NCBI GenBank assembly: GCA_964612665.1
Contig: CAZTCI010000006.1
Location: 77,750-141,749 of the forward strand
Direction: 5' to 3'
From: an uncultured Planctomycetales bacterium
GTDB lineage: Bacteria; Omnitrophota; Gorgyraeia; Zapsychrales; JAHFFX01
DNA: 64,000 bases
Shown piece after piece: positions 673 through 13,749 of the stretch. The first letter of the stretch is position 1; every line of letters begins with the position of its first letter. A model generated the notes under the pieces. It was not told the DNA's origin, did no database searches, and saw only the letters and a list, made by a program, of their open reading frames with translations. The position numbers were made by a program, and so were the translations under genes.

Positions 673-1551
673 TTATTTCTTCGTATTAAAGTAACTTTTT
701 GAAAATTTTTGTCTGGATTTTCCAAAAAGATAGGTTCTAAGGCCGGGAAATTCATCCAAAAGACAAAAAGCTGTCTCAAAACACCGCAAACGATTGTCAA
801 AGTCCTTTTCCTCATTAAAAGAATCGTATCCGGCCAACCGAAGCAGATTTTCAATTGGAAAGGTCATTACCACCCAGAAACTTCGCGAAATTTCCTTAAC
901 CTTGCGCTCGATTAAAGTCATATCCCTTGAAGTGGTATAGCGGCGATTCTTCCCGTAATGCTCGAGAAACATGGATTTCGTCAGATATTTCGAGAGATAG
1001 TGAGTAGTGCGGTGGATATCAACATGTTTGATATGGACGATTTGACCTCCCCCTATTGACTCCCAAGCAGTCGAAACCCACGACTGTTCGATGAAGCGAT
1101 CAACCATGATGTGCAAGTGAGCGTACCCACTTTTTTGAAGTTCCAACACAGCAATAAACGAAATGTTTTTTCCAAACTTTCGTTTAAGATACGTACGCAT
1201 TTTATTCCAACAGTTTTTAATATATACAATTGATTCTTCAGCTTCACATTTAGAAGGATCAAGTGTGAGCGTAAGCAGGCGACAGAGATTTTTTTCTGAA
1301 GCCTTTTTAATAATTAATTTTCTAAGCCTGCTCGCTTTCTTCGGGCCACATGAAGGACAAACCCATTTCTTGCAATACATCCTAAGGTGCGACCATTTGT
1401 CTGCTCGCACGATGTCTTGAGTGCCAACTAAAGTCATCGCACCACAGGAGCATTCCTCTTTGTTTCGATTATGCCCATCTTTGTCAAGTGAAGTACAGCT
1501 ATTAGCTTCATTAGCTATATAGCTAGAGTCCAAATTAATATTCAAATCCAT
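673..1551 (-). CDS. Rolling-circle replication initiator (HUH endonuclease, superfamily I, phiX174 gpA-like two-Tyr type)
   Basis: All three Rep motifs are present: motif I 'LLTLTLD', motif II HUH 'HLHIMV', and motif III 'YLSKYLTK' with two Tyr spaced by three residues (compare phiX gpA YVAKY). There is also an N-terminal CxC...CxxC zinc-finger region. Confidence 0.8.
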   Translation of the reverse strand: MDLNINLDSSYIANEANSCTSLDKDGHNRNKEECSCGAMTLVGTQDIVRADKWSHLRMYCKKWVCPSCGPKKASRLRKLIIKKASEKNLCRLLTLTLDPSKCEAEESIVYIKNCWNKMRTYLKRKFGKNISFIAVLELQKSGYAHLHIMVDRFIEQSWVSTAWESIGGGQIVHIKHVDIHRTTHYLSKYLTKSMFLEHYGKNRRYTTSRDMTLIERKVKEISRSFWVVMTFPIENLLRLAGYDSFNEEKDFDNRLRCFETAFCLLDEFPGLRTYLFGKSRQKFSKSYFNTKK

Positions 1552-1682
1552 ATTTCCAGCCTTTCAGGAAGGTCATTTTTAGGCCTCCCACAGTCAGGGG
1601 TGATCAGGCCCCGACGCGAGAGGTAGGTCAGACTGTGGTCTGGCCTCTTGAGGGGAGAGACCTTCCGAGCTCACCCCCAAGA

Positions 1683-1946
1683 TCAGTTAAGGTTTTTATA
1701 CTCTTTGAGAATTTCTTCTTTGATTGACTTCTTGAGCCCTTCGGAAATCTCAACTACGGGCGTGTATTTTTTCTTACCATTTTTGTCGTCGTAGGAGGTT
1801 TGAGGGAGGCCCAGCCAATCACCTTTTTGGTCTTCCATTAAGCGAATTCCGTTAACGGTGACTTCGCCGACAGCAACGTCAGCGAAAGCCCGCAGCATTT
1901 CTTTTCCTTCAATTTTCTTAATCCTAATGACAGTTATTTGTGACAT
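1683..1946 (-). CDS. spoVG: SpoVG family protein
   Basis: MSQITVIRIKKIEGKEMLRAFADVAVGEVTVNGIRLMEDQKGDWLGLP...EILKEY matches the conserved SpoVG pattern (I-D/T-V-R-I ... G-x-L/M-R/K-A-x-A ... I-R-V/L ... Y C-terminus). Internal ATG at 1944-1946 chosen as the start; the ORF-track 5' extension is probably spurious. Confidence 0.7.
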   Translation of the reverse strand: MSQITVIRIKKIEGKEMLRAFADVAVGEVTVNGIRLMEDQKGDWLGLPQTSYDDKNGKKKYTPVVEISEGLKKSIKEEILKEYKNLN

Positions 1947-2022
1947 AGGTAATCCTTTCTCATATTTGATTTTTATTTGGGTTAAGATAATTTTTACAAC
2001 AATCGAAATATGAGTAGGCGAC

Positions 2023-2211
2023 CTACACCTCAACAGAAATTTTCTTCTCACAATTGGGTTCTCCACATTTTCTTGATAGCCGTCCAGACAGCTCCACGAG
2101 TCGGCCAAAATTTTCAATTATTTCGATAGCCTCGTCGCTCGAAATTTGTCGTCCATCGACGCGGCTGAAAGTTTGAATAACATCCGCAATGAAAGCCGCA
2201 GAATATTTCAT
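2023..2211 (-). CDS. Hypothetical small protein (62 aa) between the two SpoVG genes
   Basis: ORF only; tightly packed with the flanking genes on the same strand. Confidence 0.3.
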   Translation of the reverse strand: MKYSAAFIADVIQTFSRVDGRQISSDEAIEIIENFGRLVELSGRLSRKCGEPNCEKKISVEV

Positions 2212-2519
2212 AGAAACGTCTCCTGACTCTCATGAGGCGGCTTTGGATTATCAAATAAATTTCTATAAGCATTCACGATTGCTTTAGTGAGCGCTTGTTC
2301 AGTTTCTTTGTTTATGGGGTAAAAAGAAGGGAGTTGTTTACCATTACGAAGAGGTTTAGTCGGAAATACTAAACGTATGTCAGTCTTATCAAAAGTCTCG
2401 TGCAAGGCAATATTCCCTAAAAAAAGCTGATTATTGACGACGCACGAAGCGAATCCGCACAATCCTTGATCAAGTTTGATTAGCCTGACACTTATTTCAG
2501 TTATAGATATCGGGTTCAT
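2208..2519 (-). CDS. SpoVG-like paralog
   Basis: MNPISITEISVRLIKLDQGLCGFASCVVNNQLFLGNIALHETFDKTDIRLVFPTKP...AIVNAY has the same SpoVG fold pattern as the neighbouring gene. Start chosen at the internal ATG (2517-2519), which is preceded by GAGGAAA; the ORF-track start at 2570 lacks an RBS. Confidence 0.6.
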   Translation of the reverse strand: MNPISITEISVRLIKLDQGLCGFASCVVNNQLFLGNIALHETFDKTDIRLVFPTKPLRNGKQLPSFYPINKETEQALTKAIVNAYRNLFDNPKPPHESQETFL

Positions 2520-2611
2520 TAGTTTCCTCAAAGTAAAAAAGCCATCTGCAATTTTTTGCAGATGGCTCACTATACATCAGGAACCCTAGAACCCCTCGAC
2601 GAGTAAAGGGG

Positions 2612-3421
2612 TTACCTTATTTGTCGGTAACCTCCATTGATAAGTGAAAGGCAAGCATTGTATCGACGCCGAATATTATCTTCCATAGAGGCGCCTGTTG
2701 TTTTAGATTCCAATGGGTACATGTCCAGAGCAATATCCATGAAGTCTTTTCCGCTCTCACGTAGCTCATATACTCTAAGATAACCAACATACTTTTCGAT
2801 GTGAACACGAGTTTGATCAATGTTTTGTTTCTTCATATCATATAAAAGACTAATTGAATCCAAGATTGCAGACTTCGAATGGTTAAAATTAATCAGAACT
2901 GATTGCAAATATTCTGGGAGGGGAAAATCTAATTTAGGATCAATTTTTATATTGACTGGAAATGGAGCATTTGTTTCCATAAGGGAATTGGCTGTAACTT
3001 CAAACATTCTCATGAAAATAAAAGCTAATAAACAATGGTGCTTTCGTCCTTTAAAAGTAAGAGTATCAAAATTAAAAATTTCATTTGAAAAAGTCCACAC
3101 ATCATATTCGGGTGGAAGTAATGCCAACATTTCCCAATCCTGACATAATTGACGATAAAGTTTATAAAAATGATTGTTCTTTTCAAAACTTATACAGGTT
3201 TTTTTAACGTAAGCTAAGGTTTCATCGCTGAGTTTAGGGCTTGGATAAGTCTTGTTTGCGATAGCAAAAAATTTGGTGAGGTCAAGCGAGCAAGATTTAG
3301 AATAATTTTCAATATCTTTAAAAAGTTTAGAAAAGGAACTGTTTCGACGTAAGAATTCCCATTTTAAGACAAAAAGTTCTAATTTCCGTTTCCACACATC
3401 TTCACGAGACAGTTTTGTCAT
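2612..3421 (-). CDS. Hypothetical protein with a 'WEFLRRN' motif (putative MGE regulator/DNA-binding protein)
   Basis: A 269-aa ORF. The WEFLRRN motif near the N-terminus is one I associate with a family of MGE-encoded putative transcriptional regulators. It is the last gene of the minus-strand backbone, just before the divergent intergenic region. Confidence 0.5.
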   Translation of the reverse strand: MTKLSREDVWKRKLELFVLKWEFLRRNSSFSKLFKDIENYSKSCSLDLTKFFAIANKTYPSPKLSDETLAYVKKTCISFEKNNHFYKLYRQLCQDWEMLALLPPEYDVWTFSNEIFNFDTLTFKGRKHHCLLAFIFMRMFEVTANSLMETNAPFPVNIKIDPKLDFPLPEYLQSVLINFNHSKSAILDSISLLYDMKKQNIDQTRVHIEKYVGYLRVYELRESGKDFMDIALDMYPLESKTTGASMEDNIRRRYNACLSLINGGYRQIR

Positions 3422-3637
3422 AAGGACTCACATATTCATCAAAAATAACTTCATAACTCGAAGGTTCTATTCAATATACAACAGAAAACTATTCAGGTAC
3501 AGTAACAAGCAACAGCAAATAAGCAAAAAAGAAGAATATATTTTAAAACATCGTTTTCCTTAGCCCTTCCTAAAGTTAATTGTTATAAATGGTATTAAGC
3601 ATTATAATATAAAAACTTTTTAAAGGTACGGGGAAGC
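3422..3637. promoter_or_regulatory. Divergent AT-rich intergenic region between the minus-strand element backbone and the plus-strand helicase operon
   Basis: 216 bp of AT-rich non-coding DNA between divergently oriented genes; promoters are presumed but not mapped. Confidence 0.35.
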
Positions 3638-6600
3638 ATGGCATTAGAACTAACGAAATACATCAAGTATTGTCTTGCATACGTAAGACTTACAACGCAG
3701 AAGGCTTTTACTCTTCAACAAAGGTATTCTATTCAATTTCCCAAAGATAAGTTCAATCTTTTGGGACTTTTGAATGGGGATATTGATGGGAATCTTGGAG
3801 AATTAATCAAGCTTGATATATTTTACAATTATGATCCTAAGAAGGTTCCTTCAGAATTAAAATCTCTTTATGAGAGTGAAAAGGAATTAGCAAATAAAAT
3901 AGAAGATATATACAACAAATTTAAAAATGATCCTTATACCAAACAAATCATATTAAACTTTGGATACTTCACATTAGAGGTTCCCCCAGAAGACGATGAT
4001 GTAATTTTGAGTGATGAAGATTCTGATTTAAACTCCTCGAAACAACAATGTACCCCATCGAGTAAAACAGTCCAATTTCCCCTTTTTACCATTCCCGTAA
4101 AAATTGAAAAGAATATTGAAAAAGGTGTAGGTAAATACCTGGTTTATTCTGTCGATCCTGAATTTCACGTTAATATAAGTGTATTTGAAAAAATTCTGGG
4201 GGATGATCTTTACTTCCAACTCATAGAAAAATTTGGTTTTATGGAAGTAGAAGGTCAATTTGTACTCCCAGTAACAAGTTTGGATATATTTGTAAAAATT
4301 TGGCAAGAAATTAAGGCGCAATTAAAATTACGAAATGCTAATTTTGATGAGAACTCGTTTAGCGTAGATGAAACGAATCTTTCTCTGGCTCCGAAAGTCA
4401 ATTATTTTCTCGCTGAAGATTTGGAAAAATTAGCAAAATTGGAACAATCTCAATTAGCTAAAACTTCTCTTACAAGCTGGATCGATAACGCAGATATAAA
4501 TATCTATGATTCCGAAGCCAAAGAAGCAGATATTTATTTTCCTTTTCAATATGACAAATATAAACTCAAAGTCCTTTCCGTCATTAATAACAAAGCATCA
4601 GTGGTTCAAGGGCCACCAGGAACAGGAAAATCCGAAACAATTGCAAATCTTTTATGCCATTTAGCCGCAAAAGGATTTAAGGTTTTATTTGTTAGCCAAA
4701 AGGCCCAAGCCCTAAAAGTGGTAAAAGACAAACTAAAAAAACTAAATGTCCACTATCTCTCTGGATATATTCCCAACTTAAACTCTGTTCAATTAAACGA
4801 GGAAGACGAGGTTGACGGAATCGCAATTCAATTATCGGCTTTAGACGGTTATATTGAGAAATTGACATATTCCTTAGACAACGGAAGGTTAGAAAAAAAT
4901 CATTCTTTGGAATCAATAGAATCAGAAAAAACAACGCTGAAAGAATCGTTCAACCGTTGTTTCATTGAAGAAAGGAGATTTTTTGAGTTAAAAACAAATC
5001 AACAAGCTTTCAAGCCTTTTGATTTGGGAAACTTTGATTCAGGAAAATTTGAAAATAATTTTTCATTTGAAGTTATAAGAGATATTCAAAAGATGGTAAC
5101 CGAAATTCAAAGTCTTAAATCTCAGATTAAACAATCCGAATCATTGGAATTTATTAATTATTTCGACGATCAGTTCCAGAAGATAATTGGAAAAAAGGGA
5201 AGATATCTAGAGAGTGTAGGAAGATTCAAGAATGATTACCAAAAAACCGGATATGATCGACATAATATTCTTTTTAGAATTTTAAACAATAGCCTCAGAA
5301 AAATAAGAATAAATAATGATTGGGGTCAGCTCCCTCGGGAGATAACAGACTATATCAATGTTGAATTGAATAAAGATATCTCAAGAAGCGAAGGCGTTGC
5401 AGTCATTAGCAAGTTAGAAAAGTATTTAGAATACTATAAAGCAAAAGAAACACAACAGACCAAAGAAAACGAGTTGAATGAATTATTAAATAAATCTGGA
5501 ATAACTTTCGATCAGTTTGAATTGATAGTTAAGTGGATTAAATCGAATTCATTTGAAACAGTTAAACAAAATATAATAAAGTTTCAACAAACAAATAAAT
5601 CAGTTCAAAGTTTTTCAAATTTAATTGATCAAAACAACGTTCAAAATGGATTGAATAAGATATCAATAACCAGAACTCAAACAGTTGCCAATTATCTGCA
5701 GAACATCATAAATCAAAAATTTATTGGACGCTGGAAGAAAGATGCGAACCTTCGACAAACTACAAAGAAACTCGGAAAGGCTTTTGGTAAATCCAAGAGA
5801 GCCTTTAAGACTTTTGATAATCTTCGAGCAGACCCGACTAATTTTAAATCAATTTTAGACTTGATCCCCGTATGGATAATGGAACTTGATGACGCTTCAA
5901 GAATTATTCCTCTTGAGAATAACATTTTTGATTATGTAATCCTAGATGAGGCTTCGCAGTGCAATATCGCATATACCTTGCCAGTAATGTTTCGAGCAAG
6001 TAAGACACTATTTTTTGGAGATAGCGAGCAAATGCGAGATAGCACAGTCCTGTTTAAATCTAATCAAGCATTTGATGAGTTAGCCAGAAGATATCAAGTC
6101 CCCGAAGAACTAAGAATCAAAACAACAGGAAGTTCTGTACAGTCCGTTTTAGATATAGCGTCTATGAGAGGATTTTTATCAATTCCACTTAGATATCATT
6201 ATCGTTCACCGAGAGAATTAATTGGTTTCAGTAACAAGTATTTTTATAAGCCGAAAGGAAAAGAACTAATTCCTCTAAACAATAATTACTTAACCTACAA
6301 AGACACTAATAGAGTAATGGTAGTCCATGAGGTTAAGGTTGATCATTCAATCGAGATATCAGACAAGATCAATGCCTCGGAAGCTAGAGCAATATTAAAG
6401 TTATTTAAAGAATTAAAAGCCGACGCTAGATACAAAGACAAATCCATAGGAATTTTAAGCTTCTTCAACGCACAAGCTTCTTATTTAAGAGATGTCTTTG
6501 AAAGAGAAGGTTTTAAGGAAGATGATAATAACTACAAGATCAGTATCATTGAAGGTATTCAGGGAGACGAAAAGGATATTGTTATTTATTCTTTTGTAAT

Positions 6601-7177
6601 GCGTAGCCCTGATCAAATTAGACAGTATTATCCCTTAACAGGTGAAGGTGGCGATATCAGGGGAGATATAAACAGAGGTAGAGTTAATGTTGCATTTTCG
6701 AGGGCACGTCAACAAGTTCATTGTTTTGTAAGTATGTCTATTGCTGATATCCCAGACAAAATTTGGATTAAGAAATATCTTGAGTATGCAAGGGATTGTG
6801 GGAAAGTCGACTCTTGCTCCGTTGATTTAAGACCCTTTGATTCTTACTTTGAGGAAGAATTCCATTCTTTGTTAAGGACAAAGCTCAATTCCGATTATTT
6901 AATCCAGAATCAAGTTCCAAGTTGTGGATTTAAGATAGATTTCGTTGTTACAAATTTAAAAACAGAAAGACGAATAGCAATTGAATGCGACGGCCCAACA
7001 CATTTTAAGAATGAATCAGATGAAGAGTTTGGATATTACATAGAAAGCGATGAGGAAAGACAGCGTGTCCTAGAATCGGCAGGATGGGAATTTTATAGAA
7101 TTAAATATTCCGACTGGATTAACAATAATAAAGCTAGGCAAGATTCGTTGAAAGAAATAATGGTACTCCTAAAATAG
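3638..7177 (+). CDS. DUF4011/SF1 (Upf1-like, AAA_11/AAA_12) helicase with a C-terminal DUF559 (Vsr/REase-like) domain
   Basis: Walker A 'VVQGPPGTGKSETIANLL' and Walker B 'VILDEASQC' (DEAxQ, Upf1-like). The N-terminal 'FPLFTIPVKIEK' block is typical of DUF4011. The C-terminal '...IAIECDGPTHF...DEERQRVLESAGWEFYRIKYSDW' is the DUF559 signature. Confidence 0.85.
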   Translation: MALELTKYIKYCLAYVRLTTQKAFTLQQRYSIQFPKDKFNLLGLLNGDIDGNLGELIKLDIFYNYDPKKVPSELKSLYESEKELANKIEDIYNKFKNDPYTKQIILNFGYFTLEVPPEDDDVILSDEDSDLNSSKQQCTPSSKTVQFPLFTIPVKIEKNIEKGVGKYLVYSVDPEFHVNISVFEKILGDDLYFQLIEKFGFMEVEGQFVLPVTSLDIFVKIWQEIKAQLKLRNANFDENSFSVDETNLSLAPKVNYFLAEDLEKLAKLEQSQLAKTSLTSWIDNADINIYDSEAKEADIYFPFQYDKYKLKVLSVINNKASVVQGPPGTGKSETIANLLCHLAAKGFKVLFVSQKAQALKVVKDKLKKLNVHYLSGYIPNLNSVQLNEEDEVDGIAIQLSALDGYIEKLTYSLDNGRLEKNHSLESIESEKTTLKESFNRCFIEERRFFELKTNQQAFKPFDLGNFDSGKFENNFSFEVIRDIQKMVTEIQSLKSQIKQSESLEFINYFDDQFQKIIGKKGRYLESVGRFKNDYQKTGYDRHNILFRILNNSLRKIRINNDWGQLPREITDYINVELNKDISRSEGVAVISKLEKYLEYYKAKETQQTKENELNELLNKSGITFDQFELIVKWIKSNSFETVKQNIIKFQQTNKSVQSFSNLIDQNNVQNGLNKISITRTQTVANYLQNIINQKFIGRWKKDANLRQTTKKLGKAFGKSKRAFKTFDNLRADPTNFKSILDLIPVWIMELDDASRIIPLENNIFDYVILDEASQCNIAYTLPVMFRASKTLFFGDSEQMRDSTVLFKSNQAFDELARRYQVPEELRIKTTGSSVQSVLDIASMRGFLSIPLRYHYRSPRELIGFSNKYFYKPKGKELIPLNNNYLTYKDTNRVMVVHEVKVDHSIEISDKINASEARAILKLFKELKADARYKDKSIGILSFFNAQASYLRDVFEREGFKEDDNNYKISIIEGIQGDEKDIVIYSFVMRSPDQIRQYYPLTGEGGDIRGDINRGRVNVAFSRARQQVHCFVSMSIADIPDKIWIKKYLEYARDCGKVDSCSVDLRPFDSYFEEEFHSLLRTKLNSDYLIQNQVPSCGFKIDFVVTNLKTERRIAIECDGPTHFKNESDEEFGYYIESDEERQRVLESAGWEFYRIKYSDWINNNKARQDSLKEIMVLLK

Positions 7178-7199
7178 ATTAAGCAACATTTGTTTTTTT

Positions 7200-8639
7200 A
7201 TGAAATTTACAAAAGCTTTTAGAATCGATAAAACACAGCCAGAATTAGATTTTGTAGACATTCCGCTTCATACTGATACACCCTTATTTATTGATCCTTA
7301 TGCAATCAGCAAAAGAAACGATATTTGGTCTATTGAATGCCATAACGCAATAGCCGATTTTTTTCAAAAGGCCGTAGACGCAATTCGCAATAACAAAGAT
7401 TCAGAAGCAATCCAGATGTTTTCAAAATTAAATGAGACAAATGATACCCATTTAGGATTTTCAAGTGCTAAAGCACAGGGAAAGGGAGTCAGCGAAGGGC
7501 AAGCCTTATTACTTTATAAAAAGCTAAAAGAAAGTTCGGCAGTAAAAACTGGCTTTATAACAGAATTAGCCGATTGTGAATTATTAATTGAGGGAATCGG
7601 CCCAGATAAGATTAGCGATATAACCACAAAAATAATTAAAGAAAAACTTATTGAATACACAATTAATCAATGCGCATTGTTAGGTTTGGAAACCGTTAAG
7701 GTTTCATCGGGTTATTATTGGGATAGAGAAAAACAACGATGGACAGATAATTTTTTTCCTCTACCAGTTTATAAAAATCAGAGAATAATCTTAGTCCCGA
7801 GAGCAATTGCAAGATATGAGTTCTCATACAATTATTCCGAATACTACAATCATTTTATTCTTAATTATTTACAAGCAGAACATTTAAATGCCAATTCATC
7901 ACTTGTTCAAACCTTAAAGAAAGGTAGACGTGTAGTCTACAAAAAAACATTAAAAGAAAGAGAAGAATATCCATGTTCAAAAGAGTTTATTTATAAATTT
8001 TCGAGGCAACATCCAAAAGTGCTTGAAGAGTATAAAAAAAGAAAAGGCCAGCAAATTAAAGATGAAACAGTGGAAGAATTAGTTAAGGCTTTTGATGTAT
8101 GTGAGACCTCTTCATATCTAACAAGAGCATTGAAATCAATCGCCTCGGGTGATAATGAAGCTTCAAAGTATCACGATCTAATTATCGGAATAACCGAGTT
8201 CATATTTTATCCATTATTAAACTATCCCAGAAAAGAAGAGCCGATACATGGTGGGAGAAAAAGAATTGATATTTGTTTCAATAATGCCGCAAGTGATGAT
8301 TTCTTTTTTCATCTTCATAAATCACATGAAATCCCATGTCACTTAATTATGGTTGAATGTAAGAATTATAAAGGAGACCCCAAAAATCCAGAATTAGATC
8401 AATTAAGTGGACGATTCGGTGTTAATCGAGGGTGTTTTGGCTTTTTAATTTGTAGACGTTTTGATGATAAGAAGCTATTTATTGAAAGATGTAAAGATAC
8501 ACATAAAGATGGAAGGGGAATAATTATGGCGTTAGATGATGATGATATTGTTCGACTTTTATCATTTAAGGCTGATAAGAACGACAAGGAGATAGACAGA
8601 TTTTTTAACTTAAGATTTAGAGAGATATTAACAGGTTAA
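7200..8639 (+). CDS. Hypothetical protein with a C-terminal PD-(D/E)xK nuclease-like domain (Shedu/HamA-like?)
   Basis: The C-terminus '...EEPIHGGRKRIDICF...HLIMVECKNYK...' gives an E...D...ExK arrangement on predicted beta-strands. I do not recognise the N-terminal ~330 aa. It lies 23 bp downstream of the helicase on the same strand. Confidence 0.6.
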   Translation: MKFTKAFRIDKTQPELDFVDIPLHTDTPLFIDPYAISKRNDIWSIECHNAIADFFQKAVDAIRNNKDSEAIQMFSKLNETNDTHLGFSSAKAQGKGVSEGQALLLYKKLKESSAVKTGFITELADCELLIEGIGPDKISDITTKIIKEKLIEYTINQCALLGLETVKVSSGYYWDREKQRWTDNFFPLPVYKNQRIILVPRAIARYEFSYNYSEYYNHFILNYLQAEHLNANSSLVQTLKKGRRVVYKKTLKEREEYPCSKEFIYKFSRQHPKVLEEYKKRKGQQIKDETVEELVKAFDVCETSSYLTRALKSIASGDNEASKYHDLIIGITEFIFYPLLNYPRKEEPIHGGRKRIDICFNNAASDDFFFHLHKSHEIPCHLIMVECKNYKGDPKNPELDQLSGRFGVNRGCFGFLICRRFDDKKLFIERCKDTHKDGRGIIMALDDDDIVRLLSFKADKNDKEIDRFFNLRFREILTG

Positions 8640-8710
8640 TTAAAAAACCCGTCTTTATGCAATGGTCAGATGAATTAAGTCAAAAATAACTTTTCTTAAG
8701 AGAATCAAAT

Positions 8711-9316
8711 ATGATAAAGGTCGTCGAAGTATTTCAAGCCGATAGAAATACAAAACGTGAATTGCCTCTTTTCCTTTCTAAAATTCGTGCAGGATTTCCG
8801 TCTCCTGCAGACGATTATCAAGATAAAAAACTCGATCTCAACGAATATTTGATAAAACACCAAGCCGCAACTTTCTTTGTGAGGGTCAGGGGCGACTCTA
8901 TGATCAAAGCAGGCATTCACTCGGGAGATATTCTTGTGGTTGATCGTTCTATTGAGCCAAAAGAGAAAAAGGTTGTGGTAGCTGTAGTAAATGGTGAATT
9001 TACCGTAAAGCGTGTTTGTAAAATAAAAAATAAACTATTTCTCATACCTGAAAGCGACGATTACACGCCTATTGAAACAAGTTGTAGCATAATAACTACT
9101 ATGCCCAATAAATTGATGGCTGGAATTCACGACCGAATGCCTGTTATTTTAGATAAAGAAAAAGAACGACAATGGTTAACTGAAAAAGACTTAGATAAAG
9201 CGATAGGTTTACTAAAGGCTTATAGTGCTATTAGAATGACAGCTTACCCTATTTCAATAGCAGTAAACAATCCTAGAAATAATTCAGCCGATATAATTAA
9301 ACCTTTGGAATTATAA
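8711..9316 (+). CDS. UmuD-like S24 peptidase fused to a C-terminal fragment of an SRAP (YedK-like) protein; chimeric, probably a remnant
   Basis: The first part matches UmuD: 'LPLFLSKIRAGFPSPADDY...FFVRVRGDSMIKAGIHSGDILVVDRS...EFTVKRV', with the A-G cleavage site and the Ser/Lys dyad. The second part, '...SIITTMPNKLMAGIHDRMPVIL...WL...AYPIS..VNNPRNN', matches the C-terminal half of SRAP. The N-terminal Cys2 half of SRAP is absent. Confidence 0.65.
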   Translation: MIKVVEVFQADRNTKRELPLFLSKIRAGFPSPADDYQDKKLDLNEYLIKHQAATFFVRVRGDSMIKAGIHSGDILVVDRSIEPKEKKVVVAVVNGEFTVKRVCKIKNKLFLIPESDDYTPIETSCSIITTMPNKLMAGIHDRMPVILDKEKERQWLTEKDLDKAIGLLKAYSAIRMTAYPISIAVNNPRNNSADIIKPLEL

Positions 9317-9348
9317 TTTCAGAAAACAGATTAGGAAATTAAATTACT

Positions 9349-10185
9349 TTGAAAGCCTTAAAATTACCTTTTGGATTAAAGAATAGCCAACTTATTCAAG
9401 TTTCGGATGTAGAATCTGGGTTGAAATGCGGGTGTAATTGTCGCGCTTGTGGGTATCCTCTTGTAGCAAAAAAAGGAAAAAGAAAAATTCATCATTTTGC
9501 ACATCACAAACAGCCAGATTGTAAATACGCTACAGAAACAGCGTTACATGAGGCCGCAAAAAAAGTAATTGAAGAAGCCGGTTACATAGTATTACCCGAA
9601 TTGAAATATAAAATTGGTGAAACGGGTCATCGATTAATTGTCAGTCAAGGTAAGTTACATTTTGAAGAAATTACTTTAGAGAAGAGATTTCATAATGTTA
9701 TTCCCGATATTTTAATAAAGCAAGAAGGACAATTTCTTAATGTGGAAATTTGCGTTACTCATAGAGTAGATGAGGAGAAATTAGAAAAGATAAAAGAGAG
9801 TAATTTGTCGACTCTAGAAATCGATTTGTCAAACATTGATCGGACGATTGGTTTTCCACTTCTAAAAGATTTGATAGTAAATTCAATTGAAAATAAAAAA
9901 TGGCTTTTTCATAGAGAATATAATGATTTAAAAGAAATGTTTATTGGGAGATCAAAATCAAAAAGATGTAGTGGTTATGATGGAATATCTGTTTCTAATT
10001 GCCCTAAGGCAATAGAAAGGTCGTATAGGTTACTTGGTCCTCACTTTGATAATGATTGTGGAAACTGTTCTTATTGTGTAGAACAATATAAGAATGATAA
10101 TTGGACGCTGAGAAAACTTAACTGCATTGGTCATTTAAACGAAGAAGAAATTAGTAATTCACTGAAAACCACAATCAGCATATAA
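9349..10185 (+). CDS. CoiA-like competence-family nuclease (Zn-finger + PD-ExK) with an extra C-terminal Cys cluster
   Basis: 'CGCNCRACGYPLVAKKGKRKIHHFAHHK' is the CoiA N-terminal C4 finger plus the HFAH motif. 'VIPDILIK...NVEICVTH' is the D...ExC/K nuclease core. The C-terminus adds 'CGNCSYC'. Confidence 0.6.
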   Translation: MKALKLPFGLKNSQLIQVSDVESGLKCGCNCRACGYPLVAKKGKRKIHHFAHHKQPDCKYATETALHEAAKKVIEEAGYIVLPELKYKIGETGHRLIVSQGKLHFEEITLEKRFHNVIPDILIKQEGQFLNVEICVTHRVDEEKLEKIKESNLSTLEIDLSNIDRTIGFPLLKDLIVNSIENKKWLFHREYNDLKEMFIGRSKSKRCSGYDGISVSNCPKAIERSYRLLGPHFDNDCGNCSYCVEQYKNDNWTLRKLNCIGHLNEEEISNSLKTTISI

Positions 10186-10227
10186 TTCAGATCGATTTTT
10201 GATAATGATTGCTCTAGACTACATAAA

Positions 10228-10704
10228 ATGAGAAAAAATCGAAAAATTAATATTCTATTAGTTGCGATACCATCTTTTTTTATACTTGGTTGTGCCACGA
10301 CAGAGAATTATGAAGCAATACTAAATCAATGGGTAGGTAAATCTGAAAGTGAATTAGTTACCGCTTGGGGCATCCCAAAAGATAATTATAAACTTGATGA
10401 TGGTGGCAAGATTTTACTTTATTCCAATAGCCATAGTGTTGAAACCGGTGGTTATTCATATACTATGCCTCAAACTACATATCGTACGGAGACTATACAA
10501 GGTACCCCGGTATATTCTAGGGACCCTATAGCCACTATGCAGTCAGCACAACCGAGGACATATCAAATAAAGACCACGGAAAATGTTACTACTACAGTAC
10601 CAAAAGCCATAAAAAATTATTCATGTGAAACCAGATTTCATCTTGATAATAAAGGTATTGTAAAAGATTGGAAATGGCAAGGCAACGACTGCGTATCCTA
10701 TTAG
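10228..10704 (+). CDS. Lipoprotein, hypothetical
   Basis: Signal peptide with an 'ILGC' lipobox. Confidence 0.55.
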   Translation: MRKNRKINILLVAIPSFFILGCATTENYEAILNQWVGKSESELVTAWGIPKDNYKLDDGGKILLYSNSHSVETGGYSYTMPQTTYRTETIQGTPVYSRDPIATMQSAQPRTYQIKTTENVTTTVPKAIKNYSCETRFHLDNKGIVKDWKWQGNDCVSY

Positions 10705-10720
10705 CGTTGAGAAATAAAAA

Positions 10721-11137
10721 ATGATTAGAAAAATTTTTTTGATCTTATTCTTATGCAGTATTCCTTTATTTTTCAATAAAGAACTTTACGCTGACGAACC
10801 GGAACAAATCTCGATTATAAACCTAATAGCTACTCCTGAAAAATATGAAGGTAAATTAATAATGATTTTTGGTTATGTAAAATTAGAATTTGAAGCAACA
10901 AGTGTTTATTTGACAAAAAGTGACATGGAAAATTATATATGTAAAAACGGTTTGTGGTTAAATGGCATCGGTTCTGATGAGTGGAAGAAATACGATGGTC
11001 AGTTATGTTTAATTGAAGGTATTTTTGATTCTACAATGACTGGTCATATGGGGGCTTGCAGTGGTGGAATTAAGAATGTTTCGAGACTTCAAGTTTGGAA
11101 CATTGAAAAAATAGCACCGAACGCTCATGCGAATTAG
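10721..11137 (+). CDS. Secreted hypothetical protein
   Basis: N-terminal signal peptide (LILFLCSIPLFFNKELYA). Confidence 0.5.
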   Translation: MIRKIFLILFLCSIPLFFNKELYADEPEQISIINLIATPEKYEGKLIMIFGYVKLEFEATSVYLTKSDMENYICKNGLWLNGIGSDEWKKYDGQLCLIEGIFDSTMTGHMGACSGGIKNVSRLQVWNIEKIAPNAHAN

Positions 11138-11390
11138 TAGTTAACCAGTTGATAAACTCGTCCATTAACTGACCCCAGTAATTTTCGTGCGGAATCTTCC
11201 GTCGAGATACAATGAGCCGTGATCGCCAGTGGTGGTCGCGGCTTTTTGCATGACCTAACGTTTCAAATGGTTAGGCGATTATTGTTTTATAGTTTCGATC
11301 AATTTTTCCCATTCATCCACCCACGCATCCAAATCCCGTCGGAAGTCCATAAAATCCGCTCAAAATGTATCTGTTTATCTGCGTTTTTGA

Positions 11391-11638: not shown

Positions 11639-12580
11639 ATGAATTGGTTAGTATTTTCCTACTCTTTATCTACAAAAATAAGTTCAAGTTCTCGGGTTGC
11701 CATCTGGAGGAGGCTGGGGCGATTGGGCGCAGTCACTCCGAAGGCCAGCGTTTATGTTTTGCCGGATAAAGAAGAATGTTTTGAATCGTTTCAGTGGCTC
11801 GCTCAAGAGGTTCAAGAAGCTAAAGGTGAAGCGGTTGTCATGCGGGTTAATAAATTTGAGGGGTTATCTGACACGCAATTGGTAAAAATTTTTCAGGAGG
11901 CAAGAAAAGATGATTATGCCGCGATTGATTTAGAATTGGATGGCTTTGAGAGGGAGATTCACATGAAAAATAAAATATCAAAACCTTCTCAAGTTGCGGA
12001 TGCGTTAAAGAAAATCCATAGTCGTTTTTCTGAAGCTAATGAAGTTGATTTCTTTGATTCTTCCAACGCTGTCCGAGTGCGTCAGCGCATTAATAAATTG
12101 GAAAAAGAATTAAACGCTTCCGAACATCCTGCGCAAAAGATTTCCAAAGTTTCTATTCGACAGTTCAAAAATAAACGATGGGTAACCCGTCCGCATCCTC
12201 ACGTTGATCGTCTGGCCTGTGCTTGGTTGATACGGCGTTTTATTAATCCCAAAGCCGTCATTCGCTATTCTGATAATCCCAAATCCGACGAGGTTCCCTT
12301 TGATATGAAAGACGCCACATTTGGTCATCAAGGGAATTTTTGCTCTTTTGAAACAATCATTCATTCGTTTAATTTACACAATGCTGGGTTAAACGCTCTT
12401 GCTGAAATTATTCACGAGATTGATTTAAAGGATGGTCGCTATGTCCGTCCCGAAATCGAAGGAGTTGCGGCTATTCTTAATGGATGGCGCTTGGCAGGTT
12501 TTTCTGATAGCCAGTTGGAATCCCACGGAATTAGCCTATTTGAAGGCCTCTACTCAGCATTAAATCACACAAAAAAATAA
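11639..12580 (+). CDS. chrB: Chromate resistance regulator ChrB
   Basis: The MNWLVFSYSL... start is typical of ChrB. The C-terminal 'WVTRPHPHVDRLACAWLIRRFINP' is the ChrB C-terminal domain signature. It is immediately upstream of chrA. Confidence 0.75.
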   Translation: MNWLVFSYSLSTKISSSSRVAIWRRLGRLGAVTPKASVYVLPDKEECFESFQWLAQEVQEAKGEAVVMRVNKFEGLSDTQLVKIFQEARKDDYAAIDLELDGFEREIHMKNKISKPSQVADALKKIHSRFSEANEVDFFDSSNAVRVRQRINKLEKELNASEHPAQKISKVSIRQFKNKRWVTRPHPHVDRLACAWLIRRFINPKAVIRYSDNPKSDEVPFDMKDATFGHQGNFCSFETIIHSFNLHNAGLNALAEIIHEIDLKDGRYVRPEIEGVAAILNGWRLAGFSDSQLESHGISLFEGLYSALNHTKK

Positions 12581-12585
12581 AATTT

Positions 12586-13749
12586 ATGTCAGTTCCCAGT
12601 GAAACAAAACCCGTTAATTGTAGCTTGAAAGAATTTTTTCTTTATTTCTTACAGTTAGGAACATTCGGTTTTGGAGGCCCCATCGCTTTGGCTGGTTACA
12701 TGCAGCGCGATCTTGTTGAACAAAAACGATGGATTTCAAAAGAAGATTATGTTGATGGTCTCGCACTCGCGCAACTTGCTCCGGGCCCTCTGGCCGCTCA
12801 ACTGGCGATGTATTTGGGGTGGGTGAGGGCAGGAGTTCTAGGGGCTACGCTTGTGAGTGTTGCATTTATTTTACCGTCGTTTTTAATGGTGCTTGTCATT
12901 TCAGCATTTTATTTGCGATTCGGCGGGCTTCCTTGGATGCAGGCAGTGTTTTATGGCATTGGGGCCGCTGTTATTGTGGTCATCGTCAGAAGCGCGTTCA
13001 AACTTGTCAAATTGACTTTAGCCAGAGACAAGGTATTGTGGGCTATTTTTATAGTCAGCGCAGTTATTACTGGCTGGACTGAATCAGAAATCATTTGGGT
13101 TTTTTTACTTTCCGGGGTCGCTGCTCTTTTTATTAAGGCACCGCCACGTTTTAATTCTAAAACAGCAATTTTTGCGGTTTTCCCTTCATGGCTTATTCAA
13201 GGCTTGCATGGCTCTGCTTCCGTTGGGCTATTGTGGAAAGTGCTTATTTATTTTGCAACAGCAGGATCAGTTGTTTTTGGAAGTGGTTTGGCGATTGTAC
13301 CTTTTATGCACGGAGGAGTGGTGAGTCATTATCAATGGCTTACTGAAAGGCAATTTATCGATGCGGTGGCTGTAGCAATGATTACGCCCGGGCCTGTTGT
13401 TATCACGGTCGCATTTGTCGGCTATCTTGTCGCTGGCCCTCTAGGAGCGGTGATGGCTTCTATCGGAGTCTTTTTGCCGACGTATTTGTTTGTTGTTATT
13501 CCCGCGCCTTTTTATAAACGTTATGCAAAGAATGCGCAAATCAAAGCATTTGTTGACGGCGTGACAGCCGCAGCAACGGGAGCGATTGCCGGTGCCGCTT
13601 TTGTGCTGGGGAAAAGGGCAATTATTGATGTTCAGACAATTTTGATTGCCCTGGTAACGTTTATCATTTTGTTTAAGTTTAAGAAAATACCAGAACCGAT
13701 AGTGATTCTATTGTCCGGATTTGCCGGTCTTTTATTATTTCATAAATAA
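12586..13749 (+). CDS. chrA: Chromate transporter ChrA (CHR family)
   Basis: 'FGFGGPIALAGYMQRDLVEQKRWIS...LALAQLAPGP' is the CHR family signature. It is duplicated in the second half ('ITPGPVVITVAFVGY'). Confidence 0.85.
   Translation: MSVPSETKPVNCSLKEFFLYFLQLGTFGFGGPIALAGYMQRDLVEQKRWISKEDYVDGLALAQLAPGPLAAQLAMYLGWVRAGVLGATLVSVAFILPSFLMVLVISAFYLRFGGLPWMQAVFYGIGAAVIVVIVRSAFKLVKLTLARDKVLWAIFIVSAVITGWTESEIIWVFLLSGVAALFIKAPPRFNSKTAIFAVFPSWLIQGLHGSASVGLLWKVLIYFATAGSVVFGSGLAIVPFMHGGVVSHYQWLTERQFIDAVAVAMITPGPVVITVAFVGYLVAGPLGAVMASIGVFLPTYLFVVIPAPFYKRYAKNAQIKAFVDGVTAAATGAIAGAAFVLGKRAIIDVQTILIALVTFIILFKFKKIPEPIVILLSGFAGLLLFHK

Follow-up and report, generated by a model that had tools for sequence, protein, structure and literature searches.

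A single open reading frame (ORF) in the 64,000-nucleotide stretch of DNA analysed here (the window) encodes a protein whose two ends belong to different families, a UmuD-type S24 peptidase at the N-terminus and an SRAP (YedK-like) protein at the C-terminus. The locus raises the question of whether the two were joined into a working fusion protein, or whether the ORF is what remains of genes that were once separate. The first-pass annotation had placed the ORF at positions 8711–9316 of the plus strand with a product of 201 residues; both its extent and every peptide quoted from its translation were reproduced here. The features of the ORF are as follows.

8711..9316, plus strand: chimeric ORF of 201 codons and a stop, consisting of UmuD residues 1–122, a junction codon and the C-terminal 78 residues of an SRAP
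8711..9076, plus strand: umuD-derived segment, residues 1–122, with the native start and without the C-terminal 20 residues
8789–8794, plus strand: A27-G28 cleavage site of the umuD segment
8897–8899, plus strand: Ser63 of the umuD segment
9008–9010, plus strand: Lys100 of the umuD segment
9077..9079, plus strand: junction codon 123 (ACA, Thr), assignable to neither parent
9080..9316, plus strand: SRAP-derived segment, residues 124–201 and the native stop codon, corresponding to approximately YedK 144–222
9128–9130, plus strand: H140 of the SRAP segment, the equivalent of His160 (R142 is the equivalent of Arg162)

Composition of the ORF and its junction

Profile searches assign Peptidase_S24 (Pfam PF00717) to residues 19–124 (E 8.8e-27, 93.6 bits, cutoff 23.3) and SRAP (Pfam PF02586) to residues 122–188 (E 1.4e-16, 61.2 bits, cutoff 27.1). 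The N-terminal part also matches NCBIfam NF007621 (Pol V autoproteolytic subunit) with 142.2 bits at a cutoff of 110. The SRAP similarity, initially proposed from the sequence alone, is supported by profile search with both Pfam and HMMER, and the chimeric nature of the ORF is real and far beyond chance.

Residues 16–125 of the chimera align to residues 13–121 of the 139 residues of E. coli UmuD, for which structures have been solved (PDB codes 8gmt and 1umu). The A-G cleavage site and the Ser/Lys dyad named in the first-pass annotation are both present: A27-G28 aligns with UmuD C24-G25, S63 (of the GDSM motif) with Ser60 and K100 (of the TVKRV motif) with Lys97, and all of these residues are invariant in an alignment of nine sequences (the chimera and eight close relatives). 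The S24 fold signature, the cleavage site and the dyad are thus shared with E. coli UmuD (PDB codes 8gmt, 1umu, 1i4v and 1ay9); in contrast to E. coli UmuD, the chimera has no C-terminal strands and no UmuC partner gene, and carries a foreign 78-residue tail. The description of residues ~1–135 as a complete UmuD does not hold. Homology to UmuD ends at DDYTPIE (E122), and the next 20 residues (IKDGADFEIWGVVVHVIHSV), common to all eight aligned relatives, are absent. The sequence on the umuD side of the junction reads ...CCTATTGAA, and the 3′ end of an intact umuD encodes IKDG...FEIWGVV. Measured against a UmuD profile, the segment matches positions 1–124 of 142, compared to the ~140 of 142 positions reached in the other 90 loci. 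The chimera therefore does not contain the complete UmuD catalytic/dimerisation domain, since the C-terminal strands (...FEIWGVVxHVIHxx) are missing.

The second part had been taken for the C-terminal half of an SRAP. It is indeed an SRAP C-terminus, although it begins at residue 124 and, with 78 of the ~220 residues of the domain, represents only its last ~36%. Residues 127–199 align to residues 146–221 of the 222 residues of YedK, whose structure has been solved, and the Pfam match is confined to profile positions 146–214 of 214. As had been noted earlier, this part does not include Cys2. The first ~141 residues of the SRAP are missing, including Cys2, Trp67/Trp68, Asn75, Arg77 and Glu105, and since the fragment does not form the N-terminus of the protein, it cannot have an N-terminal cysteine. 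Equivalents of Thr149, His160 and Arg162 are kept (IITT...IHDRMP, compared to IVT...IHDRRP in YedK). The chimera thus shares the IHDRxP motif (His160, Arg162) and the Thr149 equivalent with YedK and human HMCES (PDB codes 6nuh, 6kbs, 2icu and 6oe7), but differs from both in the loss of the Cys2 nucleophile and of Asn75, Glu105, Trp67/68 and Arg77. An AlphaFold model of the chimera computed from the single sequence was uninformative (pLDDT 35).

The junction was located by codon-level comparison with the four related loci L010, L093, L094 and L008. UmuD homology extends through GAA (E122) and SRAP homology starts from AGT (S124), which moves the junction from nucleotides ~9100–9130, as first estimated, to codon 123 (9077–9079). 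At the position of this ACA codon, the relatives have ATC or ATA (Ile) in umuD, and ATT, TTA or ATA just before SCSIITT in SRAP. Microhomology of 1–3 nt at the junction is possible from these comparisons.

The source of the DNA is metagenomic, and an assembly or sequencing artefact that joined reads of separate umuD and SRAP genes would also produce such an ORF. The identical protein is found in four Logan assemblies (each from a different run of SRR12313477-80) and on a 228-kb contig at NCBI, with the same neighbours and with 100% identity to the window over 0.9–12.6 kb. The exact junction and its flanks are identical in all five assemblies, which excludes a one-off misassembly. In addition, near-identical intact umuD or SRAP genes are present in no public assembly (apart from the sequence itself, the closest UmuD is 79% identical), and the junction contains no repeat that could have misled an assembler. 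An artefact is therefore extremely improbable. All of these assemblies come from one run series and are not evolutionarily independent; the five copies represent one clonal population and amount to a single evolutionary observation.

Full-length homologs that share this architecture, which the first-pass annotation had named as the finding that would indicate a genuine fusion family if they were common, were sought in several collections, and none was found. Among the best 120 of 7,956 hits in a collection of 5.8 billion proteins, both Pfam domains occur only in the identical sequence (P0001), and every other hit among these 120 is a UmuD of ~142 residues that covers ~61% of the query. The SRAP part alone was also used in an exhaustive HMMER search against 1.84 billion representatives, which returned 5,526 SRAPs, with a best identity of 55%; the full-length SRAP hits align to the SRAP part at their positions ~140–220, and S24 similarity is absent from the best 150 of the 5,526. 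No umuD-SRAP fusion was found in 90 related loci from genomes, metagenomes and IMG/VR, nor among plasmid or phage records. With the 80-residue SRAP part as query, a word-index search for homologs gave no matches, and a search of genome contigs gave only two distant loci. Loci L016 and L021 and eight Legionella-family plasmids matched both halves of the query and were rejected, as they contain adjacent, separate full-length genes in the order SRAP-umuD-umuC. Recurrence of the S24-SRAP architecture in an independent lineage was not found in these collections, and the ORF does not appear to define a new protein family.

Related cassettes and the origin of the chimera

The UmuD part is 72% identical to the UmuD proteins of L010, L093 and L094 over residues 1–122, and 59% identical to that of L008; for L010 (from GCA_964515035.1), a BLASTP alignment gives 79% identity over residues 20–122. 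L008 is found in a Planctomycetales metagenome-assembled genome. The cassettes of these four loci are borne by mobile elements from uncultured bacteria. Cassette order was judged where the contig was long enough and an SRAP gene was present. In all four of these loci, which are the best UmuD matches that also carry an SRAP gene, the genes are arranged on the same strand as umuD-umuC-(small ORF)-SRAP. Their SRAPs are 53–62% identical to the SRAP part of the chimera, which equals or exceeds the 55% of the best hit among the 1.84 billion representatives. Both parts of the chimera are thus closest to the first and last genes of cassettes from a single clade, which indicates their co-ancestry in that clade.

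Strand and order of the genes in these cassettes are the same as those of the two parts of the chimera. However, the cassettes consist of three or four separate full-length genes, in contrast to the one ORF in the window, in which umuC, the small ORF, the 3′ end of umuD and the first two-thirds of the SRAP gene are missing. Joining the equivalent points in the intact cassettes deletes 1,758–2,168 nt. Since the order and strand of the cassette are compatible and both halves are cut at one codon, a single deletion is the most economical explanation. With a probability of about 0.78, the ORF is the in-frame scar left by a single internal deletion in a umuD-umuC-(small ORF)-SRAP cassette that had been acquired horizontally. 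The endpoints of this deletion would lie at codon ~123 in umuD and codon ~141 in the SRAP gene, so that the last 20 umuD codons, the whole of umuC, the small gene between them (if there was one) and ~141 codons at the start of the SRAP gene would have been lost. Translation of the remaining frame would then begin at the umuD start codon and terminate at the SRAP stop codon. The polymerase gene would be missing because the deletion spanned umuC. Both the mechanism and the ancestral gene order are deduced from sequence comparison, and we infer them from cassettes at other loci.

The earlier proposal of a deletion that fused adjacent umuD and SRAP genes, with intact neighbours to be looked for in related elements, is thus retained in part. 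A deletion-derived chimera is favoured, and umuD-umuC-SRAP cassettes do exist in relatives; however, umuD and SRAP are not adjacent in the closest of them, where umuC, in some cases together with a small ORF, lies between them. The observation that no umuC or dinB gene follows the ORF was correct, and none is found elsewhere in the 64 kb. No umuC, N-terminal piece of an SRAP or C-terminal piece of a UmuD was detected in the window by tblastn or by an unfiltered profile scan. A weak tblastn match of SRAP residues 84–128, obtained repeatedly at window positions 2838–2960, would have suggested insertion into an SRAP gene; the unfiltered profile scan did not reproduce it, and it was dismissed as noise. 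A pre-deletion allele or a syntenic relative of the island was not found, so that the gene order is taken from cassettes elsewhere whose UmuD is 72% identical. Homologs of the genes that flank the ORF in the window are absent from the 90 loci, and no relative of these flanking genes carries a umuD-umuC-SRAP cassette.

The divergence between the SRAP remnant and the SRAPs of the intact cassettes (53–59% identity) does not exceed that among these cassettes themselves (46–64% identity, at 77–80% identity of UmuD). The intact frame, the kept catalytic residues and the degree of SRAP divergence would fit a recent deletion, and would equally fit continued selection. An in-frame outcome of a deletion has a prior chance of 1 in 3, which counts against a simple scar.

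The arrangement of SRAP and umuD genes is variable in the wider set of loci. An SRAP gene lies within 10 kb of umuD in 30 of the 90 loci, in agreement with the association that has been published for SRAP genes and the UmuC-UmuD dyad (PMC3765255). The SRAP gene can precede umuD, separate umuD from umuC, follow umuC with the same orientation, or face umuC in a convergent arrangement. The order umuD-SRAP-umuC is seen in L064 (10001–12384), where umuD and SRAP are 2 nt apart. In L012, two umuD genes (6001–6426 and 8398–8823), both close relatives of the UmuD part, flank a gene for an AAA_14/DUF4143 ATPase; this stretch of contig is without umuC, and the solitary umuD genes are set in a Tn7-like/defence background. 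Small ORFs of 105–114 residues are located inside or just after the umuDC(-SRAP) cassettes of L010 (7638–7982), L005 (3778–4095) and L094 (8471–8797). None of the three has a Pfam match, and the product of the L010 ORF has a hydrophobic C-terminus. These small ORFs may represent an unrecognised accessory gene of the cassettes.

Some of these arrangements bear on an origin in two or more events, either by a deletion in a umuD-SRAP-umuC cassette such as that of L064 and a later, separate loss of umuC, or by illegitimate recombination, during assembly of the island, of a umuD and an SRAP gene carried by different elements. The required gene order exists in L064, solitary umuD genes occur in close relatives (L012), and the island in which the ORF is located is a mosaic. 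The GC3 of the two halves also differs somewhat (32% versus 22%), although these values are from 122 and 78 codons. However, L064 is distant from the chimera on both halves (46% and 36%), the closest cassettes for both halves are all of the umuD-umuC-SRAP type, and one event is more parsimonious than two. A history of several events is therefore unlikely, and a single internal deletion in a umuD-umuC-(small ORF)-SRAP cassette is the preferred origin.

Cassettes of this type are also found on plasmids of the Legionella family, in the order SRAP-umuD-umuC-dinB (e.g. pLD-TEX-KL, NC_009966.1). They resemble the proposed ancestor in that SRAP and umuDC are likewise carried on mobile DNA, but differ in that SRAP comes first and the genes are separate; their identity to the window is 44–47%. 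In L095 (3878–4342, plasmid pLLO-F1157CHC), umuD ends early (...PIDITQDVKW), at nearly the same point as the cut in the chimera, and is absent from the CDS table. In L097 (3152–3743, plasmid pLlyPCM2298_2), the SRAP gene is split into ORFs of 80 and 120 residues by an internal deletion and a frameshift. The Legionella plasmids thus show parallel decay, and decay of the cassette is not unusual.

The genomic island

The chimeric ORF is located in a region of low GC content near the left end of the window. This region and the sequence on either side of it have the following features.

2700..11140: low-GC island (30–36% GC, compared to 40–45% in the flanks) that holds the chimera
673–2570, minus strand: region with a rolling-circle-type Rep (REP_ORF2-G2P, E 4e-15) and SpoVG
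1683–2117 and 2208–2570, minus strand: two tandem SpoVG paralogs that adjoin Rep
3638–7177: SF1 helicase of 1,179 residues whose C-terminus carries an MTES_1575/DUF559 nuclease domain (best PADLOC match PDC-S37, E 3.8e-70; also Hhe-like and MkoA/C-like)
7200–8639: PDC-M36A-like gene, 479 residues
9349–10185: CoiA_N-like gene, 278 residues, with an N-terminal Cys-rich motif, directly downstream of the chimera
10228–11137: two small ORFs
11639–13749: ChrB/ChrA chromate-resistance pair, immediately to the right of the island, with a host-like GC content of 41–44%

The chimera is packed co-directionally with the helicase, PDC-M36A-like and CoiA_N-like genes. The helicase and the PDC-M36A-like protein are candidates for an anti-phage pair. 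Viral relatives of the PDC-M36A-like gene were not found. Homologs of the CoiA-like protein (44–48% identity) occur in unrelated contexts, beside a BglII-like restriction endonuclease (L098) or an SMC_N ATPase (L100), and the evidence suggests a defence-island nuclease rather than a competence protein. The Rep gene and the SpoVG paralogs may be the remnant of a small replicon that integrated at the edge of the island. The intact cassettes of the relatives sit amid methyltransferases, restriction and defence ATPases, and conjugation genes.

The borders of the island are not marked by tRNA genes, and att-like repeats around it are short and at chance level only. The region upstream of umuD in the window and those of the relatives could not be aligned and have no palindrome in common, so that no shared operator or SOS box was found. 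A promoter scan of the upstream region gave no more sites than were obtained in shuffled sequences.

Predicted activity of the product

Published experiments on both parent families bear on the residues that are missing. UmuDAb no longer dimerises after removal of 3 or 12 C-terminal residues, and in vivo the variant shortened by 12 residues does not repress its regulon (PMC11332147). Pol V consists of one UmuC bound to a UmuD′ dimer (PMC3901139). Crosslinking of abasic sites by SRAP proteins starts at the free alpha-amine and thiol of Cys2 and requires Glu105 (PMC9436759), and the ssDNA binding of YedK is abolished by each of the substitutions W67A, W68A and R77A (PMC6821365).

Because UmuC is absent and the dimerisation strands of UmuD are missing, we infer that the product cannot act as Pol V. 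It presumably cannot act as an abasic-site crosslinking SRAP either, because Cys2, Glu105 and Trp67/Trp68/Arg77 are missing. Both cuts lie inside single-domain folds rather than at domain boundaries; together with the missing essential residues, this argues that neither parental activity is retained. In all likelihood the polypeptide has no function, or no more than a vestigial one, and belongs to a mobile/defence island in decay. Of the two outcomes that had originally been left open, a decaying module or a natural fusion, decay is favoured over the latter, as the architecture is a singleton and both parts are without elements that experiments have found essential.

A functional new fusion would combine a putative RecA-sensing, self-cleaving S24 module with an SRAP tail that either replaces the missing UmuD strands or contacts DNA, and would serve as a damage sensor or regulator in the island. 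The ORF is intact, with all of the S24 catalytic and cleavage residues conserved, and the SRAP remnant, which has no excess divergence, keeps three conserved DNA-contact/active-site residues; the gene is also tightly packed and co-directional with candidate defence genes. Nevertheless, such a function is distinctly unlikely. Among billions of proteins the fusion was seen only in a single clonal population, it has no PADLOC match, and both fragments are cut within single-domain folds. Truncations much smaller than that of the umuD segment inactivate a UmuD homolog (PMC11332147), and the sites of W67A, W68A and R77A, each of which abolishes DNA binding (PMC6821365), are in the missing part of the SRAP. 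It is highly unlikely that the ORF encodes a selected, working protein in which a putative RecA-filament-responsive, self-cleaving S24 module has its missing strands replaced by the SRAP strand and helix, and which acts as a DNA-damage or phage sensor for the helicase-nuclease and PDC-M36A-like genes. Unless this low-probability reading is true, the locus opens no new mechanism.

The locus has a practical consequence for annotation. Domain-based pipelines would label the gene as both "UmuD" and "SRAP peptidase", with the risk that it is misread as a fusion of two peptidases. As the probable scar of an internal deletion, it would instead provide a codon-resolved example of how a mobile umuD-umuC-SRAP SOS cassette decays after landing in a genomic island.
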